Assembly: GCA_965207885.1 (NCBI GenBank)
Contig: OZ242311.1
Location: 5,792,001 to 5,856,000 of the forward strand
Length of the DNA: 64,000 bases
Direction of reading: 5' to 3'
Source of the DNA: Candidatus Latescibacterota bacterium
GTDB lineage: Bacteria; Latescibacterota; UBA2968
The first letter of the stretch is position 1. Each line of letters opens with the position of its first letter. Both the position numbers and the translations under genes were made by a program. This document shows, piece by piece, positions 11,718 to 39,708 of the stretch. A model generated the notes under the pieces. The model was not told the DNA's origin. It searched no databases and saw only the letters and a program-made list of their open reading frames with translations.

Positions 11718-14588
11718 TCAATCACCCAGCAAAAACCGCGCCTGCTTGCTCACGCTGGGCGTATTCGGTTTGTTCAAATCCGTCACCACCACCTCAATCT
11801 CCAACTGCTCTTTGCTATTCTCGGGCACATCCAGCGCAATATAAAGCGGTTCCGATATCGCAGTACCCGTATGCTCATAAGAAATCTGCACCCCATCAGC
11901 CCGTGGCGTTTGGCCCAACAACCGTCCCAATCCCCGAATCACGCCCGTACTCTGTACCCCCTTAAGCCTGTACTCCACGCGGTAACTCGTTTGCCCAAAC
12001 GCATCCTGGCTCAAATTGTAAACCTCGTAATAGAGATAAACCGGTTGCCCCTTCGCAAAAATCTTAGACGGCAAAGGCACCACCCGCAAATCCCCCTTTT
12101 GGAACTTCCCTGCCTGCTCTCCCACCTCGACAATCTGCCCCGCCAGTTCCAGATCGCTCAGCGCCAGAGCTTCACCGCGGAAAGATGAAACCGCGACATA
12201 AGTCTTATGCACCTGAACCTTTCGGCTTATTGGATCGCGCACCTGAGTACCCAATAAATACTGTCCCGGAGACAGCGCTGCACGCACCTGATCCACCATC
12301 AGCGTCCCCTTCTCTGCCTGCCCACTTATCGCTTCAGCCACCCGCACGCTATCCCGAAAAACCGGCCTCAGCGAACGATCATAGACCACCACGTCTCGAT
12401 CCAGCATCACCTGTGAATTTCCCGACGGCGTCAAAGCGGCCATTGGCACACCCATATACGTCTCCATAGCTGTCTCGCGCTCAGATTCGCGGAAATTTGC
12501 CGTGTACATATAAAAATCCAGAGGATCGCCCCCGTAATCGTGCATATAAATCGAAGGCGATTGAGACACAACTTGTGCCACAACCGTCTCGGGCGCCATC
12601 CGCGACCACAGCGCGTGATTGGGCGAATTGGGCGGGATAGGCGCGAAATCGAAAAACCCACTACCCGTCGGATCCAGAAATGTAATCTCGATCCCCCCGC
12701 CGATCTCGGCATAAATCCATGACTCCCACTTATACCCCAGTTCAGACCCATCGAGCATAACACTGCGCCTGCGCGGTATCGGGAAAGTCGGCACACCCCT
12801 TAATTCAGACGTCTCAGACTCCACCCCAAATCCATAAGACGACCGCGACTGCCCGTGTATATGCTTGCTCGGCGACACTTCTTCAAGCGCATTTGCAGCC
12901 ATCATATTCAGGCGGTTCTTCACCTTTGCGACTTTTTCATCCGTCTCAAACACCAGATAATCCGACCAGCTCTGATGATCCGGGTGCCCCAGCCGGATGT
13001 ACACATCGCCTCGCCGGTCCCACCCCCGGCCGTGCCACTCTTCCAGGCCCTCGACAAAATTTGAACGCGCAAAATGCACCCGCCGATAATGCTCAACGCG
13101 GCGCTCGTTCACCTGTGTCGTCGGCGTGGGATCCTGCTCCAACCAGAAAACTTCTCGAAGCTGTGTTAGCGACCGCCCAAAAGCACTCTGAATTTTGGAA
13201 AGCACTTCCGCAGAAGCCACCAGAGACAAATCCTGATAGTATTCCCGCTCTGTCGGATCCAAAAACTGAAAATAGCGCTCAAAAGCCGCCTGTGCCTGGA
13301 CAAAATCCCCCCGCTCAACATGCATCTCGGCCAAAAGCGGCAGATACTCTTTCGGCTTTGTCTGTGCCATCTCCTTCAACTCGTCCAGACTATAAGTCTT
13401 CTTCCCCGCGCTCTTCAGCCGCATCGCCACATACGCCAGACGCGCAGGCGTAATGGGATGGCCGGGATTTACCGCTATCTGCCGCGAATACGCTTTCATC
13501 GCCTTGTCGTAATAGCGCAGCGACTCGTAAAAAACGCCCAGCTTGAAATACGCGTCATAGTGATCGGGAAAAAGCTCCACTACATTGCCAAAATAGTGAT
13601 CCAGATCCACCCGATCCATCCCCACCATTGCCAGATGGCACATCCCCAGATTGTAGTGCGCCGCCGTATAGGCTTTGTCCATCGCGCAGGTCTCGCGGAA
13701 CAACCTCAGTGACCGAGACTTCTGGCCCGGCATCTTCAACGCCGCCAGTGCCCGCCCATTGCGCGCCTCCACAAATTTCCTCTGCTTCTTAATCGCCTTT
13801 AAAAACAACTCCTCTGCTTCTTTTACCTCATCCTGCTCCAGGCGAAGATAGCCCAGCGCGCACATCGCCACCACATCATTCGGGTGTAAAATCAGCATCC
13901 GATCACAAATACGGGCAGCATCCGTCACCAGCTTTTCATCCGGAGCCTGTGCCCGCGTGATATACTTATTCGGAATCAGCCCCCCCCGCTCAAAATACGC
14001 ATCTGACACCGTCACATAGCGACGCCCAAAGTGGTAACCGTAATAATACTTCAGCACCAGCGGATTGCGCGCCTGCCAGAACCGCGCCAAAAACAGTCCC
14101 TTATTCTTCCGATCCAGAGCCTTGTAAAAAGCCGCCGTATCCGCACTGGCCACCTCTCCCAAAATCAAACCCGCCACCTGATCTTCAAACTCGCCAAAAC
14201 TCGCCTGCAATTCCGCCCCGGCGACCTCCTGATCCTCCTCCTCTGCCTTGTCCTCTCGCTCCAAAATTTTGATATGTACCCGCGCCACCCGAAGCTCGCC
14301 CAGCAAAGACTTGATCACCACCTCTGTCTCAGACTCTGACACAAGCTCACCCTTCAACACCGTACCATCCTCCAGTAACACAGTAACATTGCGCGAAGGC
14401 TGCTCTATCATTTTAATCAGCGACTTTTTTATCCGCAGTTCGCCCATCGCCGTCTTGAGCACCACCTCATCCTCAGACTCTGACACAAGCTCGCCCTTCA
14501 ACACCGTGCCATCCTCCAGCAACACCGTTGCGCCATAAGCAGACACAACCACCAAAAAGAGACAAAGTGCAATTAAAAAAGTCTTCAT
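11718..14588 (-). CDS. GWxTD-domain protein with TPRs and duplicated N-terminal beta domain
   Basis: FWLEQDPTPTTQVNERRVEHYRRV...GWDRRGDVYIRLGHPD; LSDLELA; VYLYYEVYNL. Confidence 0.85.
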   Translation of the reverse strand: MKTFLIALCLFLVVVSAYGATVLLEDGTVLKGELVSESEDEVVLKTAMGELRIKKSLIKMIEQPSRNVTVLLEDGTVLKGELVSESETEVVIKSLLGELRVARVHIKILEREDKAEEEDQEVAGAELQASFGEFEDQVAGLILGEVASADTAAFYKALDRKNKGLFLARFWQARNPLVLKYYYGYHFGRRYVTVSDAYFERGGLIPNKYITRAQAPDEKLVTDAARICDRMLILHPNDVVAMCALGYLRLEQDEVKEAEELFLKAIKKQRKFVEARNGRALAALKMPGQKSRSLRLFRETCAMDKAYTAAHYNLGMCHLAMVGMDRVDLDHYFGNVVELFPDHYDAYFKLGVFYESLRYYDKAMKAYSRQIAVNPGHPITPARLAYVAMRLKSAGKKTYSLDELKEMAQTKPKEYLPLLAEMHVERGDFVQAQAAFERYFQFLDPTEREYYQDLSLVASAEVLSKIQSAFGRSLTQLREVFWLEQDPTPTTQVNERRVEHYRRVHFARSNFVEGLEEWHGRGWDRRGDVYIRLGHPDHQSWSDYLVFETDEKVAKVKNRLNMMAANALEEVSPSKHIHGQSRSSYGFGVESETSELRGVPTFPIPRRRSVMLDGSELGYKWESWIYAEIGGGIEITFLDPTGSGFFDFAPIPPNSPNHALWSRMAPETVVAQVVSQSPSIYMHDYGGDPLDFYMYTANFRESERETAMETYMGVPMAALTPSGNSQVMLDRDVVVYDRSLRPVFRDSVRVAEAISGQAEKGTLMVDQVRAALSPGQYLLGTQVRDPISRKVQVHKTYVAVSSFRGEALALSDLELAGQIVEVGEQAGKFQKGDLRVVPLPSKIFAKGQPVYLYYEVYNLSQDAFGQTSYRVEYRLKGVQSTGVIRGLGRLLGQTPRADGVQISYEHTGTAISEPLYIALDVPENSKEQLEIEVVVTDLNKPNTPSVSKQARFLLGD

Positions 14589-14741: not shown

Positions 14742-15860
14742 TTAGAAGGTAACAGCAGCGCTGAGGATATGCACCGAAGAGAAGAAAGCACTATCAAACT
14801 GCTTAAATGCATAATCCACCTTCACGCCCTGACCACCTTCGGTCTTAAACTGCAACCCACCACCCGCAGAGATACCCTCTGTATCGTGGTTGGTCTTGTA
14901 CCCACCTCGCAGCGTAAAGCCGATTGAGGACCCCGCTGCGCGATACGTATATTCGGCGCCGACGTGAATGCGCTCATCAAAATCGATGGGATTGTTCACA
15001 TCCAGAGCCAGGTCCAGATGGTGTGGCACAGGCGTATTGCCCATCATCGAAATCACATCGATGAGCAGGCCCAGGCGGATATTCCTCGGCAACTCAAACT
15101 GCTCCCGCTGATAAACCACCTCTGTGCTAAAATTCTGCACACTCATCGCCATCACCGTATTCCGGAACCCCGTATTGAAATACGTGCCCAGATCAAAGGC
15201 AAAGGCATTCTTGGAATTATCCACCGTCTGCCTGGAGGCTCCCAAAAAGATATTGCCAGTACCCAGGTCCTGATGGGCCATCCTGAGGGTCGCTCCTGCG
15301 GAAAAACGGTCGGTAATTTTAAGACCATAAGCCGCGGAAATGGCATAATTGCTGGTGGTAATCTCGCCCTCGTCTTTGAATCCGGCGCCAGCGGGATTTG
15401 GATCAATTGATGTTCCGTTGACAGTACCCGCATCGAAAGTCACAATCGAAAGACCGAACGTCCCTCTGCCCGGCACATTCACTGCAACGCCCGCGATCAT
15501 ACTCTTGGTATCGACGAGCCAATCGACATAAGTGACATGTGCTTCCCGGCCTTCCATAAAAGCCAGCGCACCCGGATTGAAAAGAATCGCCGAACCACTG
15601 CCGATCAACCCCACCCCGGCACCACCGAGAGCAGCGGTGCGCGCATCGGTGGGAATAGACAGGAAAGCAAAACCAGCCTGCCCGGTCTTGATAAACGTCG
15701 GCGAGGCTTCTTCAAAGCCCGGAACAATGGGATCCAGTTCTCGAACGCGACCATCAAAGTTATCGGTCACGCCAGTCGCAACGCTCCCCTGGGCAAACAC
15801 ATCGCTCGGCATCAGCCCCGCACACACAAGCGCAATCAGAATATATTTTTTCACGATCAT
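14742..15860 (-). CDS. PorV/PorQ family outer-membrane beta-barrel
   Basis: GQAGFAFLSIPTDARTAALGGA...FNPGALA signature; C-terminal Phe. Confidence 0.85.
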   Translation of the reverse strand: MIVKKYILIALVCAGLMPSDVFAQGSVATGVTDNFDGRVRELDPIVPGFEEASPTFIKTGQAGFAFLSIPTDARTAALGGAGVGLIGSGSAILFNPGALAFMEGREAHVTYVDWLVDTKSMIAGVAVNVPGRGTFGLSIVTFDAGTVNGTSIDPNPAGAGFKDEGEITTSNYAISAAYGLKITDRFSAGATLRMAHQDLGTGNIFLGASRQTVDNSKNAFAFDLGTYFNTGFRNTVMAMSVQNFSTEVVYQREQFELPRNIRLGLLIDVISMMGNTPVPHHLDLALDVNNPIDFDERIHVGAEYTYRAAGSSIGFTLRGGYKTNHDTEGISAGGGLQFKTEGGQGVKVDYAFKQFDSAFFSSVHILSAAVTF

Positions 15861-15869
15861 CCTCCTTGT

Positions 15870-18026
15870 TTAGCGAACCACAATGAATTTCTCGATATGA
15901 GTGCCCGGAACCTGAGGATCCCTGCTCTCAATATGTGCAAAGTAGATACCCGACACCAGGAACTGGTTATTGTCGTTAATCATCAAATCCCACGACAGAT
16001 CGCCAGAACCCGCAGTGTGCTCAAACTCCTGAATCAGATCGCCGGTTATCGAGAAAATACGGATGATCGCGCTTGCAGGCAGATTTACGAATAGTAGTTT
16101 ATTAGCCTGACCCGTAAAATTGAATCCACCTTGCTCTAAATCGCCGCCCTGAATCTGGAAAGGATTTGGCACAATCCGCACACTCGTAATATCTCGTCCG
16201 GGCGCGCGGAACGGACTCACGCCATCCCCCAGAGTGCGGGTGGCAAAATAGCTGCTCTCCAGACCATTGGCATCAACGGCTGTAACCGCGTAATAATACC
16301 GCGTACCGCGAATCACAGTATCGTCATTGTAAGATGTACCATTGACCGTGAAAACATCCCGCAGACCGGGTGGTTTTGTCTGAAAACCCGCCATGCGATA
16401 AACCCGGTATGAAGCCGCACCGGGAACAGCAGCCCAGGAAAGTTCGTTTTGATCCGGACCAGATGTTATTTCTACCCGTGAGGGCCAATCTGGCGTAGGT
16501 GGCAAAACGGGCTGCAAACCAACCACCGAGTTTACCTCGCGGTTGTTCCAAGCCTTGTGCGCCACATCTACTGCCGCCTTCAGGGAATCCAGGCCGCTGT
16601 TGAGAAAAGCTTCTTTCTGATCAAAAGAAATAGAACCTTCCGACCACTTTCTGCCCATCTCCTTATTCGCGGCAATGGATGGACCCGTAACAATCCAGGC
16701 CGACACAATGTGAATGCTCTCGCCGGGATTCAGTTCGGGCCAGGGACCAAATGTCACCATCCATTCCCAGTATCCCTGCTGAGACTCCACGGACGTCGCT
16801 ACGTCTCTAATGCGCTCGGCCCGCGTCGTATTCGACAGCGTGTAAAAGTCGTGTACAGCTCCCATATCCGCACTATCTGTGGTAATCCAACTGGCGTCTG
16901 GCACCCAGCGGGCAACGCGCGGCTGCCGCATTTCGGGGTCAGACTCATTCATATCGTCCAGCCAGTTGTCGGAAAGCGTATTGGGATCGCTCACCGGCGT
17001 CTTATCCACGTGCAAGAACAACCGACCTTTGTATTCGGACTCGAGAAACTCACCCGCATCGACCAGTGCCTCGCGGATCTCGTCCAACTTCGGAACACCC
17101 GCCGCAGGTGCCGGTTCGCCGCGGTCATCGCCATCGGGCCGGGTACCTGTGCGGTCTGAAGCATTGCCATCGTAGGAATACATCAGCTTGAGTTCGTCAT
17201 CCCAGTTGTTCACCTCATCGAGAATCCCGTGCTCGATTCCCGCGTCAAACGGACGCGAATCATTTCCAAAAGTCGGCGTGATGTGAGAACCACCAGAGGG
17301 ACCGCGATTGGCCGCCTGCATAAACCAGTGGAAGCCGAGATGGAAATTTTGCAGCATCGGGTTCTTGTCGCGGGTTTCCGGACTCAAGTCTGTGCCGCGC
17401 TCACCGGTTCGCACATCGGGCACGCGGGGATTTTCGGGATATGTAAAGGTCTCAATCTGAAAAATAATATCCTGTGCTTCGGTATTCGCCCATTTCCACG
17501 TCTGGGTCCTCTGGTGGATACCGCCAGTATGGACGCGCTGACCTTCGTTGTACACATCCGAACCCAGCCCGGGAATCACAGCCTCAAACTGGTCGGCAGG
17601 CAAGCCATCAAAGCGGGTATCAAAAATCGTCCATGCCTCCCGCTTGATCTCCGCGCCATCCTGGATCAGCAGAGGTGGCTGAATGCGAAATGCCTTGGGA
17701 GAACCTTTGCCCACCGCATTGAAGAAAGAACTCGAAATATCGGCAAGGTCATCAGTACCGTCGTTGACGTACTTGGAAATGGTGGTATTGGCGAGTTCTG
17801 GAAAATGCGCGGAGTAGCTGGGCATATTGAAATTATCCATAATAATCGCAGATCTCAGCCCCCAGTTTCGAGCGACCAGATAGCGAATATCTGGATTGGT
17901 GCGCGTCTCGTCCAGACCGCCGGGCCAGGTTGTGCCCCAGTTCCGTCCCGGATTTTGTGCAAAGGCACTTCCCGAAGAGACCAGCAATCCCAGAACGATC
18001 AGAAGGGGTACATATCGTCTCATCAT
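15870..18026 (-). CDS. Secreted protein with FN3 domain and T9SS-like C-terminal domain
   Basis: Signal peptide; LSWAAVPGAASYRVYR...YYYAVTAVD (FN3); VRIVPNPF...IFSITGDLI...SGIYF...KFIVVR. Confidence 0.8.
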   Translation of the reverse strand: MMRRYVPLLIVLGLLVSSGSAFAQNPGRNWGTTWPGGLDETRTNPDIRYLVARNWGLRSAIIMDNFNMPSYSAHFPELANTTISKYVNDGTDDLADISSSFFNAVGKGSPKAFRIQPPLLIQDGAEIKREAWTIFDTRFDGLPADQFEAVIPGLGSDVYNEGQRVHTGGIHQRTQTWKWANTEAQDIIFQIETFTYPENPRVPDVRTGERGTDLSPETRDKNPMLQNFHLGFHWFMQAANRGPSGGSHITPTFGNDSRPFDAGIEHGILDEVNNWDDELKLMYSYDGNASDRTGTRPDGDDRGEPAPAAGVPKLDEIREALVDAGEFLESEYKGRLFLHVDKTPVSDPNTLSDNWLDDMNESDPEMRQPRVARWVPDASWITTDSADMGAVHDFYTLSNTTRAERIRDVATSVESQQGYWEWMVTFGPWPELNPGESIHIVSAWIVTGPSIAANKEMGRKWSEGSISFDQKEAFLNSGLDSLKAAVDVAHKAWNNREVNSVVGLQPVLPPTPDWPSRVEITSGPDQNELSWAAVPGAASYRVYRMAGFQTKPPGLRDVFTVNGTSYNDDTVIRGTRYYYAVTAVDANGLESSYFATRTLGDGVSPFRAPGRDITSVRIVPNPFQIQGGDLEQGGFNFTGQANKLLFVNLPASAIIRIFSITGDLIQEFEHTAGSGDLSWDLMINDNNQFLVSGIYFAHIESRDPQVPGTHIEKFIVVR

Positions 18027-18059
18027 AACAAATTATCTCCTGAAAAAAACAGATTGCAA

Positions 18060-18104
18060 ACCTCCCCGGTTCCCCTCAAGTGCGAAAGGAACCGGAAGAG
18101 GTCT
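18060..18104. other. Intercistronic hairpin between the TonB receptor and the CTD protein gene
   Basis: ACCTCCCCGGTTCC ... GGAACCGGAAGAGGT imperfect stem. Confidence 0.55.
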
Positions 18105-18109
18105 CAAAA

Positions 18110-21100
18110 TTAGAAGGACCAGCGCACGCCGAGATGGATATCCCGCGGATTGACATAGAACAAATACGACCGCTGTGACATCACGCTCTCATCCAGTTCT
18201 TTGCCCGGCTTGTCGCCTTCTTGCAAATTCCCGCTCGCATCCACGGTCCAGCCCAATGCCTCCATATACTTCTTGAAGTTATTGCCCGAACTCGTACCGA
18301 GATGGGATCGCGTATCCCATATCCGGGATGTAGAAGTCGTGGTAACATTTTTGAAGTTGAGCGGATTGCGAATCTCCAGATAAACCGTTGGCGCCATCTT
18401 TACGTCAAACATCTTGGCAAACCGCAGATCCAGAAGCCTGGTCGCCTGCCACTGTGCGTTATCCACCGAGCGCAGTGCCACGTCGTTGGACGGGTTGTAG
18501 TTGAACCACGACCCCGCCTGATGGCGGTAATAAAGGTTGGCTTCCCAGCCCCCCTTCAACATGCGTTGCTCGCCTCCGTGATCCAGCGACGTGCGGAAAT
18601 TCAGACCAAACTTCAAAATCGGTCGCGCCTTAAAGCGCGGATTCGCACCAGCGGGACTCCTCTCGATCAAACGGTAGGACGCTGTCGATACAGTCTGTGC
18701 GTCGTAGATGCGCTCCCAGCGCACGATGCGCTTGCGCTCGGCGCGGAACTCATAGGACAAAAAGCCCGTCACAAACTGCCCGCGCGCCTTGCGCACAGAC
18801 AACTCGAACCCGCGAATATCCTTCACATTTCCATTCATATGGAAACGCGTGCTGCGTCCCGTGGTATTCTGGATATACACTCTTCCGCGTTCCGTGTCCT
18901 TCTCGATGTCTTTGAAGAACACCGTGCCGCTGAACAGATACTGATTGGCGAAATTCCGCTCGTAGCCCAGTTCATAGGCTATTGTCACGGGCATGTCCAG
19001 CCACGGATTGCCAAACTGCTCCAAAGGCTCGCCCAGACCGCTCTGCGTCTGATACAAATCCACAGAGGTCGGAATCTGTGCAAAGTGACCGTAGTTGAAG
19101 AACAGCTTGCTCTCGGCAGTAATCGGATGCGATATACCAACCCGGGGACTCACCTTCCACTTTGTGGGCGGGCGTATAGCCTCTGCCTTGGAATACAGCA
19201 ACACGGCATTGGAACCCATCCACTCTGCGTGTACCTCGTTGGGAATGTCGAAGTACTTGTCCGGACGGTGAAAGTCCAGGCGCAGACCCGCATTTACCAC
19301 AATCTGGCGATACTCCATGCGATCCTGCAAGAACACACCGCCGTAAAGAGGCGTGCGGACCCAGTAATTGTGGAAGTCAGCCGTATCCGTCACTTCCATG
19401 TTAGCTGGATCATCGATATTCCCCGGACGGAAATTGACGTCTTCCAGGGTCGGATCCTGTACAGAAGATGCAAAACCGCGGATCTCGCGCAGGAAGAAGT
19501 GATGCACCTGCACACCGGCTTTGATCTGGTGATTCGGCGTTACTTGAGACGTAATATCAAACGTATAATCGTCTTCCCAGGTATAAGACCAGTCGCCCGA
19601 ACGCGCCGGGTTGCCGTCGCCACCGCGCATGCGGTAAGCACCTAAGAGATCGAAAGTTCCGGGCTTATACGTAAAGCCCTTGGGACCTTCGTCCAGGATC
19701 ACGGCACCCGCGGCCTGAGCCGCCTGATAGCTGCTCTCGGTAACTTCTTCAACGCGACCATCTGGATATACCGCTGCTGCGGGCACACCGCGCTTCTGCA
19801 GGGGTTGCCACGAAGCCTCAAAGTCGGCCTTACCCACGCGCACCGACAAATTGTAAAACGTCCTGGGAGACAGCGTGTGTGTCCACGTCAAAGTGCCATA
19901 CCGGCGGTTGATCGTTTCGATATTGCTGCCAGACCCCATCGCGAAAATATTCCGCGTACGCAAATTGCTCACTTCAAAAGCAGGCGTGCGGGCAAATGTG
20001 CCCAAAAAGTTCCCGTACTTCGCACCCTGAGACCAGCCCTTCAGGAAGCCCAAAGACAGCTTGGTCGTCGCCGTAGGCGTGAAGATCGCCTTGGCCTGCC
20101 AGGTATCATCGCGATAGTTGGGAACGGCCATCGTCCATGTATAAGCCGACTTTTCCCGGCGCGTGGAAAGCAAGAACGACACCTTGTCCTGCACGAGCGG
20201 ACCGCCAACAGTCACATCGTAGGTATAATCCGCATCGCGGTCTGTGGCGTCGAAGTTCTGCTGATACGGATAGTCCTCATCCTGCCCAAAAGGACCTATG
20301 CCACTGGCTTCGGTCGCGATTCCGCCGACCTTCCGATGCTGGAAATCCCATATTCCCTTGGCTTGCGCAGGCGTCGAAATCACGTCTTCGAAGGGACCGG
20401 CTTTCCATTCGCCAGCAGGTCCACCCTTATCCTGGAATATATTATTCCAGCCAGCAAAATCCGGATTCCCGTCGCCATCTCTATCGGCCGTCGGTGCCAT
20501 GCTCTGGAACCGCCCCACATCCCACCAGTTATCGGTGCTGTACATCGTGGGACCAAAATACTTATTCGCTGCGGGACTCCACCGCAGATCGCCTGCCGTC
20601 GTCCATGCGCGAGGCTCGCGGTTGACCACGTTGATCACACCGCTGCGCACATCGCCGTACTCGGCATTGAACCCGCCCTTCAGAATCTGAACCTCCTGAA
20701 GTGCTGTCTTGGAAAAGGACGAATACGGACGGTTATCCCGGCTGTCTTTCATGCTCACGCCGTCAACCATATAAACGATCTCGGTCTCGTTGCCACCGCG
20801 GATATTCAAACCCCAACTATCCGTATCTATACCCACCTGCGTGGCAAACGCATCGCGCAACCGGGGTCCCACTGGCGGGGACTCGATCTCTTTGGCAGAC
20901 ATAATCACCTGCGTATAAGACACATCCATCTCAACCGGTGGGCGCTCTGCCGTCACCGTAATCTCTGCCAACTCTGCCGTTGTCTCGCCAAGCGAGAAAT
21001 CCAGCGGCGTCGTGCGGTCAATCGAAACCGCCACATCGCGCTGCGTCACAGCGCGATAACCCACCAGCGACGCCGTGACCTCATACACGCCCGGATTGAC

Positions 21101-21316
21101 GCGAATGATGAAGTATTCACCATTGACATCTGCCGTGGCACCCATTCTGGTGCCCACAATCACCACATTGGCACCCGGCAGAGGTTCGCCGGTACTGGAA
21201 TCGGTAATGCGACCCGAAATTTTACCCGTGGTGGTCTGCGCGTCGGCCTGATAAGTCAGCCCAAACCCCAGCGCAATGGCAAGCAAGGTTATAAACCCAG
21301 CTCTAAAACGATACAT
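18110..21316 (-). CDS. TonB-dependent receptor with carboxypeptidase-regulatory-like N-domain
   Basis: GKISGRITDSSTGEPLPGANV; IRGG...YMVDGV; GGFNAEYG..SGVINVV; ends GVRWSF. Confidence 0.93.
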   Translation of the reverse strand: MYRFRAGFITLLAIALGFGLTYQADAQTTTGKISGRITDSSTGEPLPGANVVIVGTRMGATADVNGEYFIIRVNPGVYEVTASLVGYRAVTQRDVAVSIDRTTPLDFSLGETTAELAEITVTAERPPVEMDVSYTQVIMSAKEIESPPVGPRLRDAFATQVGIDTDSWGLNIRGGNETEIVYMVDGVSMKDSRDNRPYSSFSKTALQEVQILKGGFNAEYGDVRSGVINVVNREPRAWTTAGDLRWSPAANKYFGPTMYSTDNWWDVGRFQSMAPTADRDGDGNPDFAGWNNIFQDKGGPAGEWKAGPFEDVISTPAQAKGIWDFQHRKVGGIATEASGIGPFGQDEDYPYQQNFDATDRDADYTYDVTVGGPLVQDKVSFLLSTRREKSAYTWTMAVPNYRDDTWQAKAIFTPTATTKLSLGFLKGWSQGAKYGNFLGTFARTPAFEVSNLRTRNIFAMGSGSNIETINRRYGTLTWTHTLSPRTFYNLSVRVGKADFEASWQPLQKRGVPAAAVYPDGRVEEVTESSYQAAQAAGAVILDEGPKGFTYKPGTFDLLGAYRMRGGDGNPARSGDWSYTWEDDYTFDITSQVTPNHQIKAGVQVHHFFLREIRGFASSVQDPTLEDVNFRPGNIDDPANMEVTDTADFHNYWVRTPLYGGVFLQDRMEYRQIVVNAGLRLDFHRPDKYFDIPNEVHAEWMGSNAVLLYSKAEAIRPPTKWKVSPRVGISHPITAESKLFFNYGHFAQIPTSVDLYQTQSGLGEPLEQFGNPWLDMPVTIAYELGYERNFANQYLFSGTVFFKDIEKDTERGRVYIQNTTGRSTRFHMNGNVKDIRGFELSVRKARGQFVTGFLSYEFRAERKRIVRWERIYDAQTVSTASYRLIERSPAGANPRFKARPILKFGLNFRTSLDHGGEQRMLKGGWEANLYYRHQAGSWFNYNPSNDVALRSVDNAQWQATRLLDLRFAKMFDVKMAPTVYLEIRNPLNFKNVTTTSTSRIWDTRSHLGTSSGNNFKKYMEALGWTVDASGNLQEGDKPGKELDESVMSQRSYLFYVNPRDIHLGVRWSF

Positions 21317-21532
21317 AAACTCCTCCTTTGTTTTCTTCCCCCGGCTTTGGGAAAGATAAGGGAAAAGCCACCCTGGCTCATCCCGCGCAACTTCTCCTGA
21401 CTACCTACTACAACAAAATACTATCAATAAGCCCTTAAACATCACCTCCTTATTAATCCCCTCCCTGTGGTCTTAAAAGCGGGCTTAAATACCCCACCTC
21501 CTTTCGGTCCATGATATTGATCATTATAAACT

Positions 21533-21566
21533 ATAATTTCCGATAAATCCACGTGTCCAATTTAAT
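21533..21566. other. Degenerate lox-like site B (inverted relative to site A)
   Basis: ATAATTTCCGATA-AATCCACG-TGTCCAATTTAAT; 21536-21552 is the exact reverse complement of 21811-21827. Confidence 0.6.
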
Positions 21567-21587
21567 ATGCACCTCGAAACCTGTCAA
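21559..21587 (-). promoter_or_regulatory. Sigma70 promoter for the TonB operon, inside the putative invertible segment
   Basis: TTGACA (21587-21582), 17 nt, TAAATT (21564-21559); same TTGACAGGT start as the 14656 promoter. Confidence 0.65.
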
Positions 21588-21796
21588 GTATTATGCACCA
21601 AATTACGCGACATGTGTTTTTCGATCATAACATATTGTTTTTCAAAAACTTAAATTTTTATCTATTGGAAATCTTAAAAATAACTCGCTGAAATCAAAGA
21701 AGTAAGCCAACACACAAACAAAAATGTCCTGCAATATTCGGCATATCAGCCATTTCATCTGGTCAAATACTAAAGAGCCACAACACTTCATTGCCC

Positions 21797-21829
21797 TTTA
21801 TTTCCGATAAGTGGATTTATCGGAAATAA
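21797..21829. other. lox-like recombination site A (13-8-13)
   Basis: TTTATTTCCGATA-AGTGGATT-TATCGGAAATAA[A]. The last base is restored by 23037 when IS4 plus one TSD copy is removed, which places the site about 100 bp upstream of the recombinase gene. Confidence 0.7.
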
Positions 21830-23027
21830 CATGGTACACGACAAAACTTAAATTGTTTTAAACAGTGGCGGATTACTCAGTAAACGAATGCATATGAGGA
21901 ACTGTTGGGTTTGTTGGTTTATATTGAGCAGGACATACTGCAAATAGTCCAACCCATATCGGAAGAGACTTTTCTCCATCCGCCCGTGATTTTTGATCGT
22001 CAAAGGATTTGTTTTTGCTATCCATTCGCCGATGATATGCGCCCAGATGCAGGCAATGGCCAAAAGCGCGATGAGTTTCTCAATGCGGTCTTGATGTATA
22101 AGATGGGTCTCTTCCAGATTAAATCCTCGACTTTTAAGATTGGCAAAAAGGACTTCAATGCCCCATCGTTTTTTATAGGTATCCAATGCGGCTTGACCTT
22201 TTTGGTTGCTGGCAAGAATGAGGTATTGGTCCTTCAATCTTAGTGCAGACAGATATACAGGCAGGTCATAAACGCGGTGGCGTTTGCACAAGTTGACCTG
22301 CTGATGGATATTAAGATTTTCAAACCGTTTTCTTATGGGGATCTCTCTACCGCCTGATGAGACAAGAGCGTTTTCCTTGATGCGAATAACAAAGGGTATA
22401 TTTTGTGTGTCTAACCACCTAAACCATTCTCTTCCAATAAATTCTCTGTCTGCGACGACAACGCGGATATGCGATTTGCAGATGCAGTTGAGCATTTCTT
22501 GCATCAAATGGATACGCTCATCACTATTGGAATTGCCCCGTTTTTTTAACAAGTGCCAACAGATAGGAAAGGCGACCCCTTCATAGATAATGCCTGCGGT
22601 TAGGATGTTGATATTGAATTTTCCCAACTTCCAATTGGTGCGATCTATTGAGACTATAAAATCCGACTTTATAGGTAATAAGTGCAAGATCAATTGTCTC
22701 ACACACGCATAGGGTAAGGCAAAGTGGGCAAAGAAGCGTTGGATACGACGATAATTAGATTTCTGCTTGACGGTTCCATTGAGTGCGTTTGCCAGTTTCA
22801 TAAAATTGACGCTACGCAATTTTATCAGCGACAATATGAACGCAGCGGTAAACGTTATTCGGGCTTTATGCCAGTGAAAATATCCTTGCATAATCGTTTG
22901 AAGTTCAATAGTTTCAGGAGACATAGACCTGTGCCTTGTTAAGATGAGAAAGGTTTGTCTTGGGACATTCAAACCTAACTCTTTTTAGCTTTTTTCACAG
23001 GTCTTTTATTTTTTGTCGTGTACTATG
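21830..23027 (-). mobile_element. IS4-family insertion sequence, copy 1 (1198 bp)
   Basis: 17-bp terminal IRs CATGGTACACGACAAAA / TTTTGTCGTGTACTATG; 9-bp TSD CGGAAATAA (21821-21829, 23028-23036). Confidence 0.95.
21848..22972 (-). CDS. IS4-family DDE transposase
   Basis: SIDRTNW, VADREF, YKKRWGIEVLFANLK (YREK motif). True start may be ATG 22924. Confidence 0.93.
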   Translation of the reverse strand: MNVPRQTFLILTRHRSMSPETIELQTIMQGYFHWHKARITFTAAFILSLIKLRSVNFMKLANALNGTVKQKSNYRRIQRFFAHFALPYACVRQLILHLLPIKSDFIVSIDRTNWKLGKFNINILTAGIIYEGVAFPICWHLLKKRGNSNSDERIHLMQEMLNCICKSHIRVVVADREFIGREWFRWLDTQNIPFVIRIKENALVSSGGREIPIRKRFENLNIHQQVNLCKRHRVYDLPVYLSALRLKDQYLILASNQKGQAALDTYKKRWGIEVLFANLKSRGFNLEETHLIHQDRIEKLIALLAIACIWAHIIGEWIAKTNPLTIKNHGRMEKSLFRYGLDYLQYVLLNINQQTQQFLICIRLLSNPPLFKTI

Positions 23028-23136
23028 CGGAAATAAATAAAAAGAGACTATCGCATGTTTAATTGATGAATCTAAATCGGATAGCGCAAGCGTCTAATAA
23101 AAACCATCTGATGCACAAGTTTGCAATACTAAAAAA

Positions 23137-24135
23137 ATGACCACAAAAATTAAAGCACCCACCTCCCAATCCATACACCTGCCCGCCTGCAGATGTTCCG
23201 CGCAGACAAGTCACAACGGTCAGACACTCTCAATGCCCGCGGCTGAACTCGCGCGTGCCTCACTCGCTCCTGCTACCATCAGAGCCTATCGGTCTGCGCT
23301 TTATGCCTGGGATACATTTCGCAACAACCGGCCCGAAAATGATACACTCATCGCCGAATATCTAACGGCGCGATATGAAGCGGGAACCAGCCCGGCTACC
23401 TGTACACAAATCGTGGGCGCAATCCGGTTTCGCGCGAAACACCAGGGCTACACCGATCCCATTGGTCCAGCTACCCAGCGCGTATTAGCAGGCATACGAC
23501 GCCGGGGACGAGACCGCGGACGGGGACAAATGGACGGCCTGCGCTGGAATGAAGCAGATGCAATAGTACGCATTGCCCAGCGCGACCAGACCCTCGCCGG
23601 ACTTCGAGACGCGGCCATCATCGCCGTCATGTCTGACGCACTCCTGCGCGTATCTGAATGCGTTGCCCTCAATGTCGAAGATCTTTTGCAAACCGACCTG
23701 CCCGACGGAAGTGCCCGCATTACCGTCCGACACTCTAAAACCGACCAGGAAGGGCGCAGCAGTGTCCTGTACATTGGACCGACAACAGCAAGAGCAGTAA
23801 CGGCCTATCTGAACGCCGCCCAAATAGACAACGGTCCCCTCTTTCGCCGCGTACGCCGCGGCGACCATCTGGGAACCGGGCGACTGACAGACCGCGCAAT
23901 CAGAAACATCGTAAAACAGCGTGCAGCAGCAGCCGGAGTCTCTGGAAGATTTTCGGGGCACTCGCTCCGCATTGGATCGGCACAGTCCCTCGCAACAGCG
24001 GGCGCATCAATTGTCGAAATGCAAATAGCAGGACGATGGCGCGATACATCTATGCCCGCTCACTATGCCCGCGCCCAACTCGCCGGTACTGGTGCCGTAG
24101 CGCGTTTGCGATATGGATGTAAAAACAAAAAATAA
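23137..24135 (+). CDS. Cre-like tyrosine recombinase
   Basis: Catalytic set LLRVSE (R), SKTDQEG (K), SGHSLR (HxxR), GRW (W as in Cre), AHYAR (Y); N-terminal APATIRAY core-binding domain. Confidence 0.9.
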   Translation: MTTKIKAPTSQSIHLPACRCSAQTSHNGQTLSMPAAELARASLAPATIRAYRSALYAWDTFRNNRPENDTLIAEYLTARYEAGTSPATCTQIVGAIRFRAKHQGYTDPIGPATQRVLAGIRRRGRDRGRGQMDGLRWNEADAIVRIAQRDQTLAGLRDAAIIAVMSDALLRVSECVALNVEDLLQTDLPDGSARITVRHSKTDQEGRSSVLYIGPTTARAVTAYLNAAQIDNGPLFRRVRRGDHLGTGRLTDRAIRNIVKQRAAAAGVSGRFSGHSLRIGSAQSLATAGASIVEMQIAGRWRDTSMPAHYARAQLAGTGAVARLRYGCKNKK

Positions 24136-24226: not shown

Positions 24227-24928
24227 TTATTTTTTGCCGCTTTTCAAAACCTCAATCATCACTAATCCGTCTTTATTTTCTTTTATGAATGGAGATGGCG
24301 CAATATCAGGGGGCATAGGAACTAAGCGGTTATACACAAAAGGCTTTTCCACGAAAATTCCCAGGCACCGGCGTTCTGGATAAGCTTCCACTTTAATATC
24401 CTGAGCACTGGGTAAATATATCAGAACAAAATACGCAGAATCATCCTTCGAAATTAAGGTGCTATAGTGGGCTTCTACCTTCTGGATGAAATCTATGTCA
24501 TAAGATAACTCACGATGATAAATACCTCTGTCTTCCCGAACATAGCTACCCGACAAATATTCTTTATAATTCTGATTGAGTTCCCTGATGATCTTCTCAA
24601 TATTATCGCGTAATTCCTCATTATCGCGTAATGGCTTGAGGAATTGCTTAAACAATTCCTCGCGTGATTTCTCATATTTTTTTTCACGAAATTTAGCAGC
24701 TTTTTTAATTAAAAAATGCCTGATTCCGTTTCCGCCAACAAAATGTCTCAGAAACTCAGAAGGAATGATAAGAGCCAAAGAGATCAATACGACATTGTGA
24801 ATAATCTCGTCTGTAAGCTCATTAGACCATCCCACATACAAGAAGCACAGGAACCCTACTATGAAGAGTTCTCCTATCAACCAACGCGAGGAGGGAGCAA
24901 AGCTGTTTGAAGGTGTATCAGGATTCAT
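24227..24928 (-). CDS. Hypothetical membrane protein with C-terminal Hsp20/alpha-crystallin-like segment
   Basis: Two N-terminal TM helices, charged helical middle, then YLPSAQDIKVE...YNRLVPMP...DGLVMIEVLK; low GC. Confidence 0.55.
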   Translation of the reverse strand: MNPDTPSNSFAPSSRWLIGELFIVGFLCFLYVGWSNELTDEIIHNVVLISLALIIPSEFLRHFVGGNGIRHFLIKKAAKFREKKYEKSREELFKQFLKPLRDNEELRDNIEKIIRELNQNYKEYLSGSYVREDRGIYHRELSYDIDFIQKVEAHYSTLISKDDSAYFVLIYLPSAQDIKVEAYPERRCLGIFVEKPFVYNRLVPMPPDIAPSPFIKENKDGLVMIEVLKSGKK

Positions 24929-25250
24929 TTCTAAATTCTTCCCATTGTTTTTTTATGGTTTTTAATAGAGTAAAACCAGCATTTATGATGATAGAAATCA
25001 AAGCCACGATATCAAAAATCGTCACCAAGGTTTTGGTAAATTGCAAAGGTAAATAAGATTCAACCTCTCCAGGGTTTTCTTCTATGGGTATTGTCTCGTG
25101 TAGCCAGAGGACGCAGGCACGAAATACCCTGAGACCTGCTACCACTACCAGAAGTGAAAAAATATCTTTAAAGAAATCAAATAGAAAATTGAAGCGGAGA
25201 TACTTTTCCCTTTGGCTCCTCCAGGATTGAAACAATTGCAAAATATTCAT
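24918..25250 (-). CDS. Hypothetical 2-TM membrane protein
   Basis: Low-GC ORF with two hydrophobic helices; overlaps the next gene by 11 nt. Confidence 0.6.
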   Translation of the reverse strand: MNILQLFQSWRSQREKYLRFNFLFDFFKDIFSLLVVVAGLRVFRACVLWLHETIPIEENPGEVESYLPLQFTKTLVTIFDIVALISIIINAGFTLLKTIKKQWEEFRNES

Positions 25251-38510: not shown

Positions 38511-39708
38511 CATGGTACACGACAAAACTTAAATTGTTTTAAACAGTGGCGGATTACTCAGTAAACGAATGCATATGAGGAACTGTTGGGTTTGTTGGTT
38601 TATATTGAGCAGGACATACTGCAAATAGTCCAACCCATATCGGAAGAGACTTTTCTCCATCCGCCCGTGATTTTTGATCGTCAAAGGATTTGTTTTTGCT
38701 ATCCATTCGCCGATGATATGCGCCCAGATGCAGGCAATGGCCAAAAGCGCGATGAGTTTCTCAATGCGGTCTTGATGTATAAGATGGGTCTCTTCCAGAT
38801 TAAATCCTCGACTTTTAAGATTGGCAAAAAGGACTTCAATGCCCCATCGTTTTTTATAGGTATCCAATGCGGCTTGACCTTTTTGGTTGCTGGCAAGAAT
38901 GAGGTATTGGTCCTTCAATCTTAGTGCAGACAGATATACAGGCAGGTCATAAACGCGGTGGCGTTTGCACAAGTTGACCTGCTGATGGATATTAAGATTT
39001 TCAAACCGTTTTCTTATGGGGATCTCTCTACCGCCTGATGAGACAAGAGCGTTTTCCTTGATGCGAATAACAAAGGGTATATTTTGTGTGTCTAACCACC
39101 TAAACCATTCTCTTCCAATAAATTCTCTGTCTGCGACGACAACGCGGATATGCGATTTGCAGATGCAGTTGAGCATTTCTTGCATCAAATGGATACGCTC
39201 ATCACTATTGGAATTGCCCCGTTTTTTTAACAAGTGCCAACAGATAGGAAAGGCGACCCCTTCATAGATAATGCCTGCGGTTAGGATGTTGATATTGAAT
39301 TTTCCCAACTTCCAATTGGTGCGATCTATTGAGACTATAAAATCCGACTTTATAGGTAATAAGTGCAAGATCAATTGTCTCACACACGCATAGGGTAAGG
39401 CAAAGTGGGCAAAGAAGCGTTGGATACGACGATAATTAGATTTCTGCTTGACGGTTCCATTGAGTGCGTTTGCCAGTTTCATAAAATTGACGCTACGCAA
39501 TTTTATCAGCGACAATATGAACGCAGCGGTAAACGTTATTCGGGCTTTATGCCAGTGAAAATATCCTTGCATAATCGTTTGAAGTTCAATAGTTTCAGGA
39601 GACATAGACCTGTGCCTTGTTAAGATGAGAAAGGTTTGTCTTGGGACATTCAAACCTAACTCTTTTTAGCTTTTTTCACAGGTCTTTTATTTTTTGTCGT
39701 GTACTATG
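38511..39708 (-). mobile_element. IS4-family insertion sequence, copy 2 (1198 bp, apparently identical to copy 1)
   Basis: Same IRs and identical translated transposase; 9-bp flanks AAAAAAATG / GAAAAAAAT do not form an exact TSD. Confidence 0.95.
38529..39653 (-). CDS. IS4-family DDE transposase
   Basis: Identical protein to 21848..22972. Confidence 0.93.
   Translation of the reverse strand: MNVPRQTFLILTRHRSMSPETIELQTIMQGYFHWHKARITFTAAFILSLIKLRSVNFMKLANALNGTVKQKSNYRRIQRFFAHFALPYACVRQLILHLLPIKSDFIVSIDRTNWKLGKFNINILTAGIIYEGVAFPICWHLLKKRGNSNSDERIHLMQEMLNCICKSHIRVVVADREFIGREWFRWLDTQNIPFVIRIKENALVSSGGREIPIRKRFENLNIHQQVNLCKRHRVYDLPVYLSALRLKDQYLILASNQKGQAALDTYKKRWGIEVLFANLKSRGFNLEETHLIHQDRIEKLIALLAIACIWAHIIGEWIAKTNPLTIKNHGRMEKSLFRYGLDYLQYVLLNINQQTQQFLICIRLLSNPPLFKTI

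Follow-up and report, generated by a model that had tools for sequence, protein, structure and literature searches.

A functional tyrosine-recombinase inverton is the probable reading of a short intergenic region within the window analysed here (64,000 nucleotides of contig OZ242311.1 from a sponge-associated Candidatus Latescibacterota bacterium), at least up to the very recent arrival of an insertion sequence (IS) of the IS4 family. Two inverted lox-like sites enclose a segment with a sigma70-like promoter. The promoter faces an operon for a TonB-dependent receptor (TBDR), a 718-aa protein and a PorV-like outer-membrane protein, and the gene of an intact Cre-like tyrosine recombinase lies nearby on the other side (coordinates in Table 1). 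Inverted repeats thus flank a promoter next to an invertase gene. An earlier note on this DNA had proposed an invertible promoter of ~260 bp run by the neighbouring Cre-type enzyme, and this proposal is supported by the synteny of the module, by covarying site cores and by flipped segments in homologous modules. In the mechanism we envisage, the recombinase would bind the 13-bp arms of the two inverted sites and pair them, strands would be exchanged across the identical 6-bp cores, and the ~260-bp promoter-bearing segment would flip. The assembled orientation would be the ON state, in which the promoter reads via a leader of ~235 nt into the operon. In the flipped OFF state the operon would lose its promoter and transcription would be directed toward the recombinase side, where it would meet the IS4 element in this genome and the recombinase gene in IS-free strains.

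Our analysis confirmed the 17-nt exact inverted repeat described in the earlier note (21536-21552 and 21811-21827). It grows to 22 nt at 91 % and is part of two larger lox-like sites. In the whole genome of 6.23 Mb, ten exact inverted-repeat pairs of at least 15 nt with a spacing of 50-600 bp were found, three of them of 17 nt, and the inverted repeat at this locus exceeds chance. The remaining two 17-nt pairs belong to a repeated element resembling a miniature inverted-repeat transposable element (MITE), ~110-130 bp long and present at C1:1585743-1585851 and 2027685-2027814 with similar flanks and 17-nt terminal inverted repeats GATGCTGTTGCCGAATT. The recombinase-proximal right site is a perfect palindrome, also kept in the genomes G007, G004, G015 and G006. 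It is readable as 13-6-13, or as 12/13-8-12/13 with the flanking A and T counted as spacer; because A and T flank the core, the sequence does not distinguish the two forms. Among relatives, variation is confined to the central 6 bp of the sites. The site matches reported previously (11/13, 7/8 and 7/13) are correct in a 13-8-13 frame by direct reading of the sequence; the lox-like character of the sites holds, and the variable, covarying core comprises 6 bp where the note had a spacer of 8 bp. Of the 23 genomic occurrences of the 10-nt arm core, just the three at this locus are in a site context, and a search for the arm motif revealed no third site in the window or the genome.

It is highly improbable that the repeat is not a recombination substrate, and instead a chance repeat, the ends of a MITE or an operator pair for a regulator. 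AT-rich intergenic DNA is prone to repeats, and the left outer arm is kept in recombinase-less genomes, where it could be an operator at the transcription start. A chance origin has to face the rank of this repeat, one of the three longest exact pairs of its class in the genome, and the MITE reading of 21534-21829 was ruled out because the segment and its arms are single-copy in the genome. Two further points against these readings, described below, are the covariation of core and arms that tracks the recombinase and the motif CCGATAA-N6-TTATCGG common to homologous modules that do invert. As a negative control, a 35 %-identical tyrosine recombinase encoded elsewhere in this genome has no inverted repeat of at least 14 nt nearby.

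Among the other genomes of the genus, 19 of 20 contain the intergenic DNA; among genomes of other genera, 0 of 20 do. The genus alignment comprises 17 rows; it omits G016, G018 and G011, whose matches covered at most ~110 nt of the coding part, and the unmatched G009. Recombinase orthologues with 87-95 % identity stand beside the same divergent TBDR operon in G007, G004, G015 and G006. The recombinase of G001 is more diverged, with module and TBDR operon syntenic, and G020 has a C-terminal remnant of the recombinase. The left core is the reverse complement of the right core in all five genomes with recognisable site pairs, in three variants (Table 1), while the left-core positions have drifted in genomes without a right site (ATCATC, TTCTTC, TTCAAC and others). 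Such matched changes in sites 260 bp apart fit strand exchange across the core, or selection for it. The arms show a similar behaviour: in G001 the left outer, the right outer and (at 10/13) the right inner arm have changed jointly from ..CCGATAA to ..CTTTTTA, in the form TTTCTTTTTA, and these jointly changed arms accompany the most diverged recombinase. In G020 (L017/L028) a deletion extends from inside the right-site core into the recombinase gene and leaves its last 65 codons; this deletion possibly records an aberrant event mediated by the recombinase.

Between the sites, the promoter scan called TTGACA-17-TAAATT (10/12 matches) in the direction of the TonB operon, as the earlier note had it, with the -35 hexamer at 21587..21582 and the -10 hexamer at 21564..21559 on the minus strand. 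The positions also bear out the claims that the -10 sits in the degenerate arm of the left site and that the start falls into the spacer: the expected transcription start, ~7 nt beyond the -10, lies at ~21550-21552 within the left-site core. The weight of the promoter call comes from its conservation in the genus, which extends to 17 of 17 genomes. The -35 and -10 blocks are kept collinear with the TBDR gene in 16 of the 17 aligned rows; in the 17th row (G012) they are on a second contig, behind another IS. This promoter is presumably the main one of the operon. A second call, TGGACA-18-TATAGT (21559..21530), was rejected, its -35 not being conserved in relatives. The leader between the predicted start and the TBDR start codon is conserved in the genus alignment. 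Its fold was no better than that of shuffled sequences (z -0.54), and the region 21100-23300 contained no Rfam family beyond a chance miRNA match at E 0.37. In contigs of the metagenome runs X6 and X12 the match ends at the left-site core and resumes at ~21625; the ~76 unlike letters in between (window 21550-21625) are collinear and not inverted. The promoter-proximal end of the segment is thus a hot spot of divergence among strains.

The recombinase has 332 aa and matches PF00589 over residues 138-314 (55 bits; cutoff 27.1). The PDB sequences matching at E<=0.01, 17 distinct ones, were all Cre or the Cre-derived Tre (best E 1e-16), in alignments covering residues 57-324. The residues R171, K201, H275, R278, W301 and Y310 align with R173, K201, H289, R292, W315 and Y324 of Cre and, except for K201, are invariant in nine family members. 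With P1 Cre the recombinase shares 28 % identity over 56 % of its length, and phage or plasmid records did not exceed ~37 % identity. From these comparisons, 'Cre-type' seems a fair label for fold and chemistry, though not for a close relative of Cre. A chromosome-dimer resolvase of the XerC, XerD or XerA type was excluded by scores far below the NCBIfam equivalog cutoffs (XerA 63 vs 220 bits, XerC 56 vs 335, XerD 49 vs 330). Before the IS insertion the recombinase gene began ~100 bp from the right site, and it still does so in relatives. Downstream, between the recombinase gene and the next GWxTD gene, the window holds two open reading frames (ORFs) of low G+C content (24227-25250; 233 and 110 aa, the former without a Pfam match). 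They are present in G000, G007 and G020; G004 lacks them and has the GWxTD gene immediately behind the recombinase.

Species-representative genomes were scanned with an alignment of nine family members, and the best 80 homologous loci were used. By record titles, these loci are in metagenome-assembled genomes (MAGs) of at least nine phylum-level groups: Latescibacterota, Poribacteria, Gemmatimonadota, Acidobacteriota, Gammaproteobacteria, Chloroflexota, Rhodothermales, Binatia and Actinomycetota. The family-wide repeat scan had no control and served to locate sites, not as a statistic. Homologous modules occur in both orientations in two subfamilies. A first subfamily, with recombinases 53-54 % identical to the one described here, comprises 11 copies in the MAG records OZ241875.1 (6) and CBDBEV010000001.1 (5). 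Sites of the form CCG(A/T)TAA-N6-TTATCGG, with the same arm core as at this locus, flank 146-159 bp in these copies; the cores match within 11 of 11 copies and form seven variants. In one copy, L073, the segment is the reverse complement of the other ten (79-95 % identity, minus strand), with breakpoints at the site cores, and its near-twin L072 has the same core and the same flanks. The scan called no promoter in the flipped copy L073. The second subfamily (46-49 % identity; record titles Gemmatimonadota, Latescibacterota and unclassified) has a segment of ~400 bp, which lies in one orientation in L099 and L101 and in the opposite one in L103, L104, L106 and L111. Members with shorter or mixed matches were left uncounted. 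The inverted segments have collinear homology on both sides, and L099 and L104 have common neighbours.

One end of the segment carries an outward-firing sigma70-like promoter by scan in L080 (11/12) and L029 (12/12), and TTGACT-17-TATATA was read by eye from the segment junctions of the second subfamily. In related modules the promoter faces the recombinase at 10 of 11, 2 of 2 and 4 of 6 loci. The recombinase-facing state is therefore not obviously unstable, and the feedback loop that the earlier note had suggested is not backed by the related modules, in which this state is common. The divergent genes are of cell-surface types in the four subfamilies examined, TBDR/PorV included: lipoproteins with a common signal peptide in the 11-copy subfamily (seven clear cases of 11), elsewhere collagen-repeat/Big_2 proteins and dockerin/PKD/cadherin/fn3 proteins.

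The 11 copies (L066, L072-L074, L076, L079-L081, L085, L086 and L091, in two MAGs) resemble a lipoprotein family that is phase-variable at multiple loci. A unit of promoter region, leader and lipoprotein signal peptide (..LAGCGGGGG..), followed by a variable body, is repeated in at least seven of them. A hairpin with a T-run lies between switch and recombinase, and an HTH_17 gene downstream; the hairpin was not listed by the terminator scan and is hence considered a hairpin only. A 48 %-identical recombinase paralogue has its own inverted-repeat pair (L029 7785-7945 in G010, L030 7411-7617 in G006) and adjoins dockerin/PKD/cadherin/fn3 genes. Its promoter is a perfect TTGACA-17-TATAAT with the -35 in the segment and the -10 inside the outer repeat arm, so that a flip would rebuild the promoter facing the other way, a split-promoter design whose layout is also present in the second subfamily. 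L029 and L030 were not counted as evidence for matched cores: their repeats have 15-27 nt, but in the frame used the cores agree at only 5/6 and 3/6 positions. On OY760735.1 (23 kb, 'chromosome 2' of a Vicinamibacterales MAG; L067-L069) three copies of a 55 %-identical recombinase have identical local repeats; the record may represent a small replicon repeated in tandem, or else an artefact of the assembly.

A rival reading is a small integrative element, with the palindromic site and the recombinase as attachment site and integrase and the left site as a leftover of integration. In its favour, the family is multi-copy in some genomes and spread over MAGs of many phyla, which suggests mobility. 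The recombinase gene with its 55-61 % G+C between AT-rich flanks would fit such an origin. We rejected this reading on the orientation of the sites, which are inverted and not direct, and on the missing third site. Moreover, the recombinase gene has both sites on one side, synteny of the position extends over six genomes, and what distinguishes related copies is a cleanly inverted segment and not whether an element is present. An integration site is thus a very unlikely explanation.

The gene abutting the right site is not that of the recombinase, a point not noticed in the earlier note; ORF 21848-22972 encodes an IS4 transposase (NF033591). The element has the ends CATGGTACACGACAAAA and TTTTGTCGTGTACTATG as terminal inverted repeats, a transposase scoring above the family cutoff, a 9-bp target duplication and multiple copies. 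There are 22 copies in the genome at 100 % identity, next to a sister element of ~1197 bp and ~84 % identity with 17 copies. Since all 22 copies are identical, the insertion at this site must be very recent, and a decay following the insertion would be too early to show. The 13-6-13 palindrome was left intact. Contigs of the runs X6, X9 and X12 have an IS-free allele, in which 21820 is joined to 23028 with nine ambiguous letters; the run X3, which holds the window sequence completely, has the IS-bearing form only. The idea that the flipped promoter aims at the recombinase applies to the IS-free relatives, where the gene is ~100 bp away, and does not apply here, where the 1198-bp IS4 element intervenes. 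In this genome the flipped promoter would run into the IS4 element, antisense to the transposase. Two of the 22 identical copies are within the window (21830-23027 and 38511-39708). Most copies of the IS4 element and its sister have 9-bp target duplications in AT-rich sequence, and the copy numbers point to a recent IS burst in this symbiont genome. In G012 (L142/L143, contigs C94 and C4) a different IS with the ends GAAGCTGTTTTAAAA is located just outside the left site, between promoter and TBDR leader, and breaks the assembly there. An apparent rearrangement at the left site of G012 was rejected, as it is this IS that splits the two contigs. The AT-rich intergenic region has been struck by IS elements independently in two species.

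Several observations speak against a working switch, and most of them agree with the alternative of a locked relic, a module that descends from a real inverton but has ceased to invert, with the promoter in effect fixed ON by a degenerate arm, an unexpressed recombinase or the IS insertion. The promoter faces the TBDR gene in 6 of 6 complete and 11 of 11 incomplete modules of the genus, and the flipped form of this locus was not seen in the 17 genus genomes. Strand-changing joints were absent from X3, X6, X9 and X12; these are assembled contigs that drop minority forms, so a minority orientation may still exist. Recombinase and right site are missing in 10 of 16 relatives, and G020 retains a remnant of each. 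The end points of the deletions differ, with the segment of G017 kept almost to its end and the deletion of G020 running from the right-site core into the gene. All recombinase-less relatives keep the promoter aimed at the operon, from which it follows that the switch is dispensable and that the operon is apparently wanted ON. The left inner arm matches at 7/13 positions only, and in relatives it lies at distances from the core that vary by 4-8 nt, so that the recombinase has one weak binding position out of four. The cores of G001 match at only 4/6 positions. The region gave four promoter-like sites in the scan versus a shuffle mean of 5.4, hence the hexamers alone are not significant, and no sigma70-like site was called by the scan in the 100-bp recombinase leader. 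The IS4 element separates the recombinase gene from the switch and may have altered the expression of the recombinase. Finally, a PhaseFinder inverton is defined by reads in both orientations, while the present locus is known from assembled sequences.

Still, we consider the locked state unlikely. The recombinase ORF is uninterrupted and encodes every catalytic residue; the right site forms a perfect palindrome, and there is no difference between the two cores. The covariation of the cores in three variants requires recent recombination or selection for recombination, and the IS insertion that could have locked the module is very recent, its copies being 100 % identical, and left the 13-6-13 site untouched. 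A functional inverton therefore remains the preferred reading, and inversion may still occur in this genome. Two candidate joints in X6 and X12 (21549>21625 and 21515>21598) were rejected as inversions, as they represent collinear diverged stretches. In metagenome contigs of the Joint Genome Institute (JGI) the pattern of the flipped left junction was unmatched, and an orientation-neutral pattern of outer arm and recombinase leader gave 11 stretches, all by chance and none with a site. These contigs therefore lack the locus and are uninformative on orientation.

The operon opposite the promoter encodes proteins of the cell envelope, and surface phase variation would be the role of the switch. 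The C-terminal end of the 718-aa protein resembles a sorting domain of the type IX secretion system by motif only. The gene of a GWxTD-domain/TPR protein behind the PorV-like gene is possibly co-transcribed with the operon. In G006 (L026) and G001 (L027) the TBDR, the 718-aa protein and the PorV-like protein (window 14742-21316) have an identity of 54-66 %, versus 84-87 % for the flanking GWxTD protein; the remaining relatives are at 96-98 %. The surface-exposed cassette thus exists as two deeply diverged types at one locus.

Table 1. Features of the candidate inverton and its surroundings in window coordinates, and core variants in the genus
Feature	Position	Strand	Remarks
GWxTD-domain/TPR protein	11718-14588	-	153 bp downstream of PorV-like gene
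PorV/PorQ-family outer-membrane protein	14742-15860	-	NF033709, 176.8 bits vs cutoff 90
718-aa protein	15870-18026	-	0 families in Pfam and NCBIfam
TonB-dependent receptor	18110-21316	-	CarboxypepD_reg and Plug domains; first gene of the putatively controlled operon
Leader between predicted start and TBDR ATG, ~235 nt	21317-21533	-	conserved; genus alignment
Left lox-like site, TBDR-proximal	21534-21565	no strand	outer arm, core and degenerate inner arm
Left-site outer arm TAATTTCCGATAA	21534-21546		12/13 match to right-site arms
Left-site core ATCCAC	21547-21552		exact reverse complement of right-site core
Left-site inner arm GTGTCCAATTTAA	21553-21565		degenerate, 7/13; register not kept among relatives
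Segment between cores, predicted to invert	21553-21810		258 bp, ~31 % G+C; crossover expected within 6-bp cores
Sigma70-like promoter TTGACA-17-TAAATT	21559-21587	-	promoter scan, 10/12 matches; faces TBDR operon
Right lox-like site, recombinase-proximal	21798-21829	no strand	perfect palindrome, 13-nt arms, 100 % complementary
Right-site arm TTATTTCCGATAA	21798-21810
Right-site core GTGGAT	21811-21816
Right-site arm TTATCGGAAATAA	21817-21829
Left copy of 9-bp target duplication CGGAAATAA	21821-21829		also part of right-site outer arm
IS4-family insertion sequence, 1198 bp	21830-23027	-	at outer edge of right site
IS4 transposase (DDE)	21848-22972	-	NF033591, 250 bits vs cutoff 152
Right copy of 9-bp target duplication CGGAAATAA	23028-23036
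Recombinase-gene leader, 100 bp	23037-23136	+	conserved; contiguous with right site before IS insertion
Cre-like tyrosine recombinase, 332 aa, intact	23137-24135	+	PF00589, 1e-14
Core variant ATCCAC			G000, G007, G015
Core variant ATCAAC			G004
Core variant TCCAAC			G006

That a local tyrosine recombinase can switch surface structures by inverting a promoter is well established. Local invertons of this type are fimS of Escherichia coli with FimB/FimE and the Tsr switches of Bacteroides fragilis, whose recombinases were reportedly described by Weinacht et al. in 2004. The present locus resembles fimS and the Tsr switches in its layout, a recombinase gene beside a short promoter segment bounded by inverted repeats, in the apparent control of surface or outer-membrane proteins and in the use of one enzyme per switch. 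It differs from them in its sites, which are full lox-like palindromes with a defined core and not just short repeats, and in its source, a Latescibacterota MAG and sponge and marine metagenome runs; sites for accessory factors were not identified. Cre itself serves the circularisation or dimer resolution of plasmids and prophages, whereas the role here would be inversion. With Cre/loxP the locus shares the structural matches, the alignment of the catalytic R-K-H-R-W-Y positions, a palindrome with 13-bp arms within 1 kb of the gene and the requirement for matching spacers. Apart from the low identity to P1 Cre, the differences are a 6-bp core with invariant flanking A and T, a chromosomal gene and inverted sites around a promoter, one of the sites having a degenerate arm. 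Cre-type tyrosine recombinases with lox-like sites have been described (Jelicic et al. 2023, PMC10250229); as far as that source was available, its criterion is a palindromic target with 13-15 bp arms and an 8-bp spacer at most 1 kb from the gene, with a GATA motif beside the spacer in active sites. The GATA motif is found beside the spacer here too. Measured against this criterion, the locus had a perfect palindrome ~100 bp upstream of the gene before the IS insertion, of the form 13-6-13 or 12/13-8-12/13, with variation in the central 6 bp. The definition used with PhaseFinder and DeepInverton (PMC11602134, in the part available), inverted repeats around a promoter with an enrichment by surface and envelope genes, fits the locus as an operational definition.

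The mechanism itself is not new; the setting is what the locus adds. The available main text of PMC11602134 mentions neither Latescibacterota nor sponges. Our literature searches turned up no publication that deals with invertons or phase variation in Latescibacterota or in other uncultured symbionts of sponges; PMC3922812 deals, in its available part, with phase variation in a sponge symbiont, but a cultured Pseudomonas of a freshwater sponge. As far as these searches found, this would be the first documented inverton in Latescibacterota, a Cre-like enzyme acting on full lox-like sites and belonging to a family across many phyla of uncultured MAGs, with cargo that includes eukaryote-like collagen and cadherin types.

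More interesting as a lead is the wider pattern: one module family in many phyla, adjoining genes of surface proteins in the four subfamilies examined. We tentatively suggest that the locus could be a member of a horizontally spread family of self-contained modules, each composed of a Cre-like recombinase and a lox-like inverton and each phase-varying a different surface protein. The core differences between copies could keep switches of the same genome from recombining with each other. In that case the family would provide a natural library in which recombinase/site pairs differ by their cores, and the diversified 6-bp cores together with the co-evolved arms of G001 are of practical interest for recombinase engineering. 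The locus raises the question whether sponge symbionts phase-vary their surfaces inside the host, and long-read sponge metagenomes that already exist allow a test of it. If the modules are spread in the suggested way, stochastic surface variation would be a common and exchangeable trait of sponge symbionts, with relevance to host recognition, phagocytosis and phage pressure.

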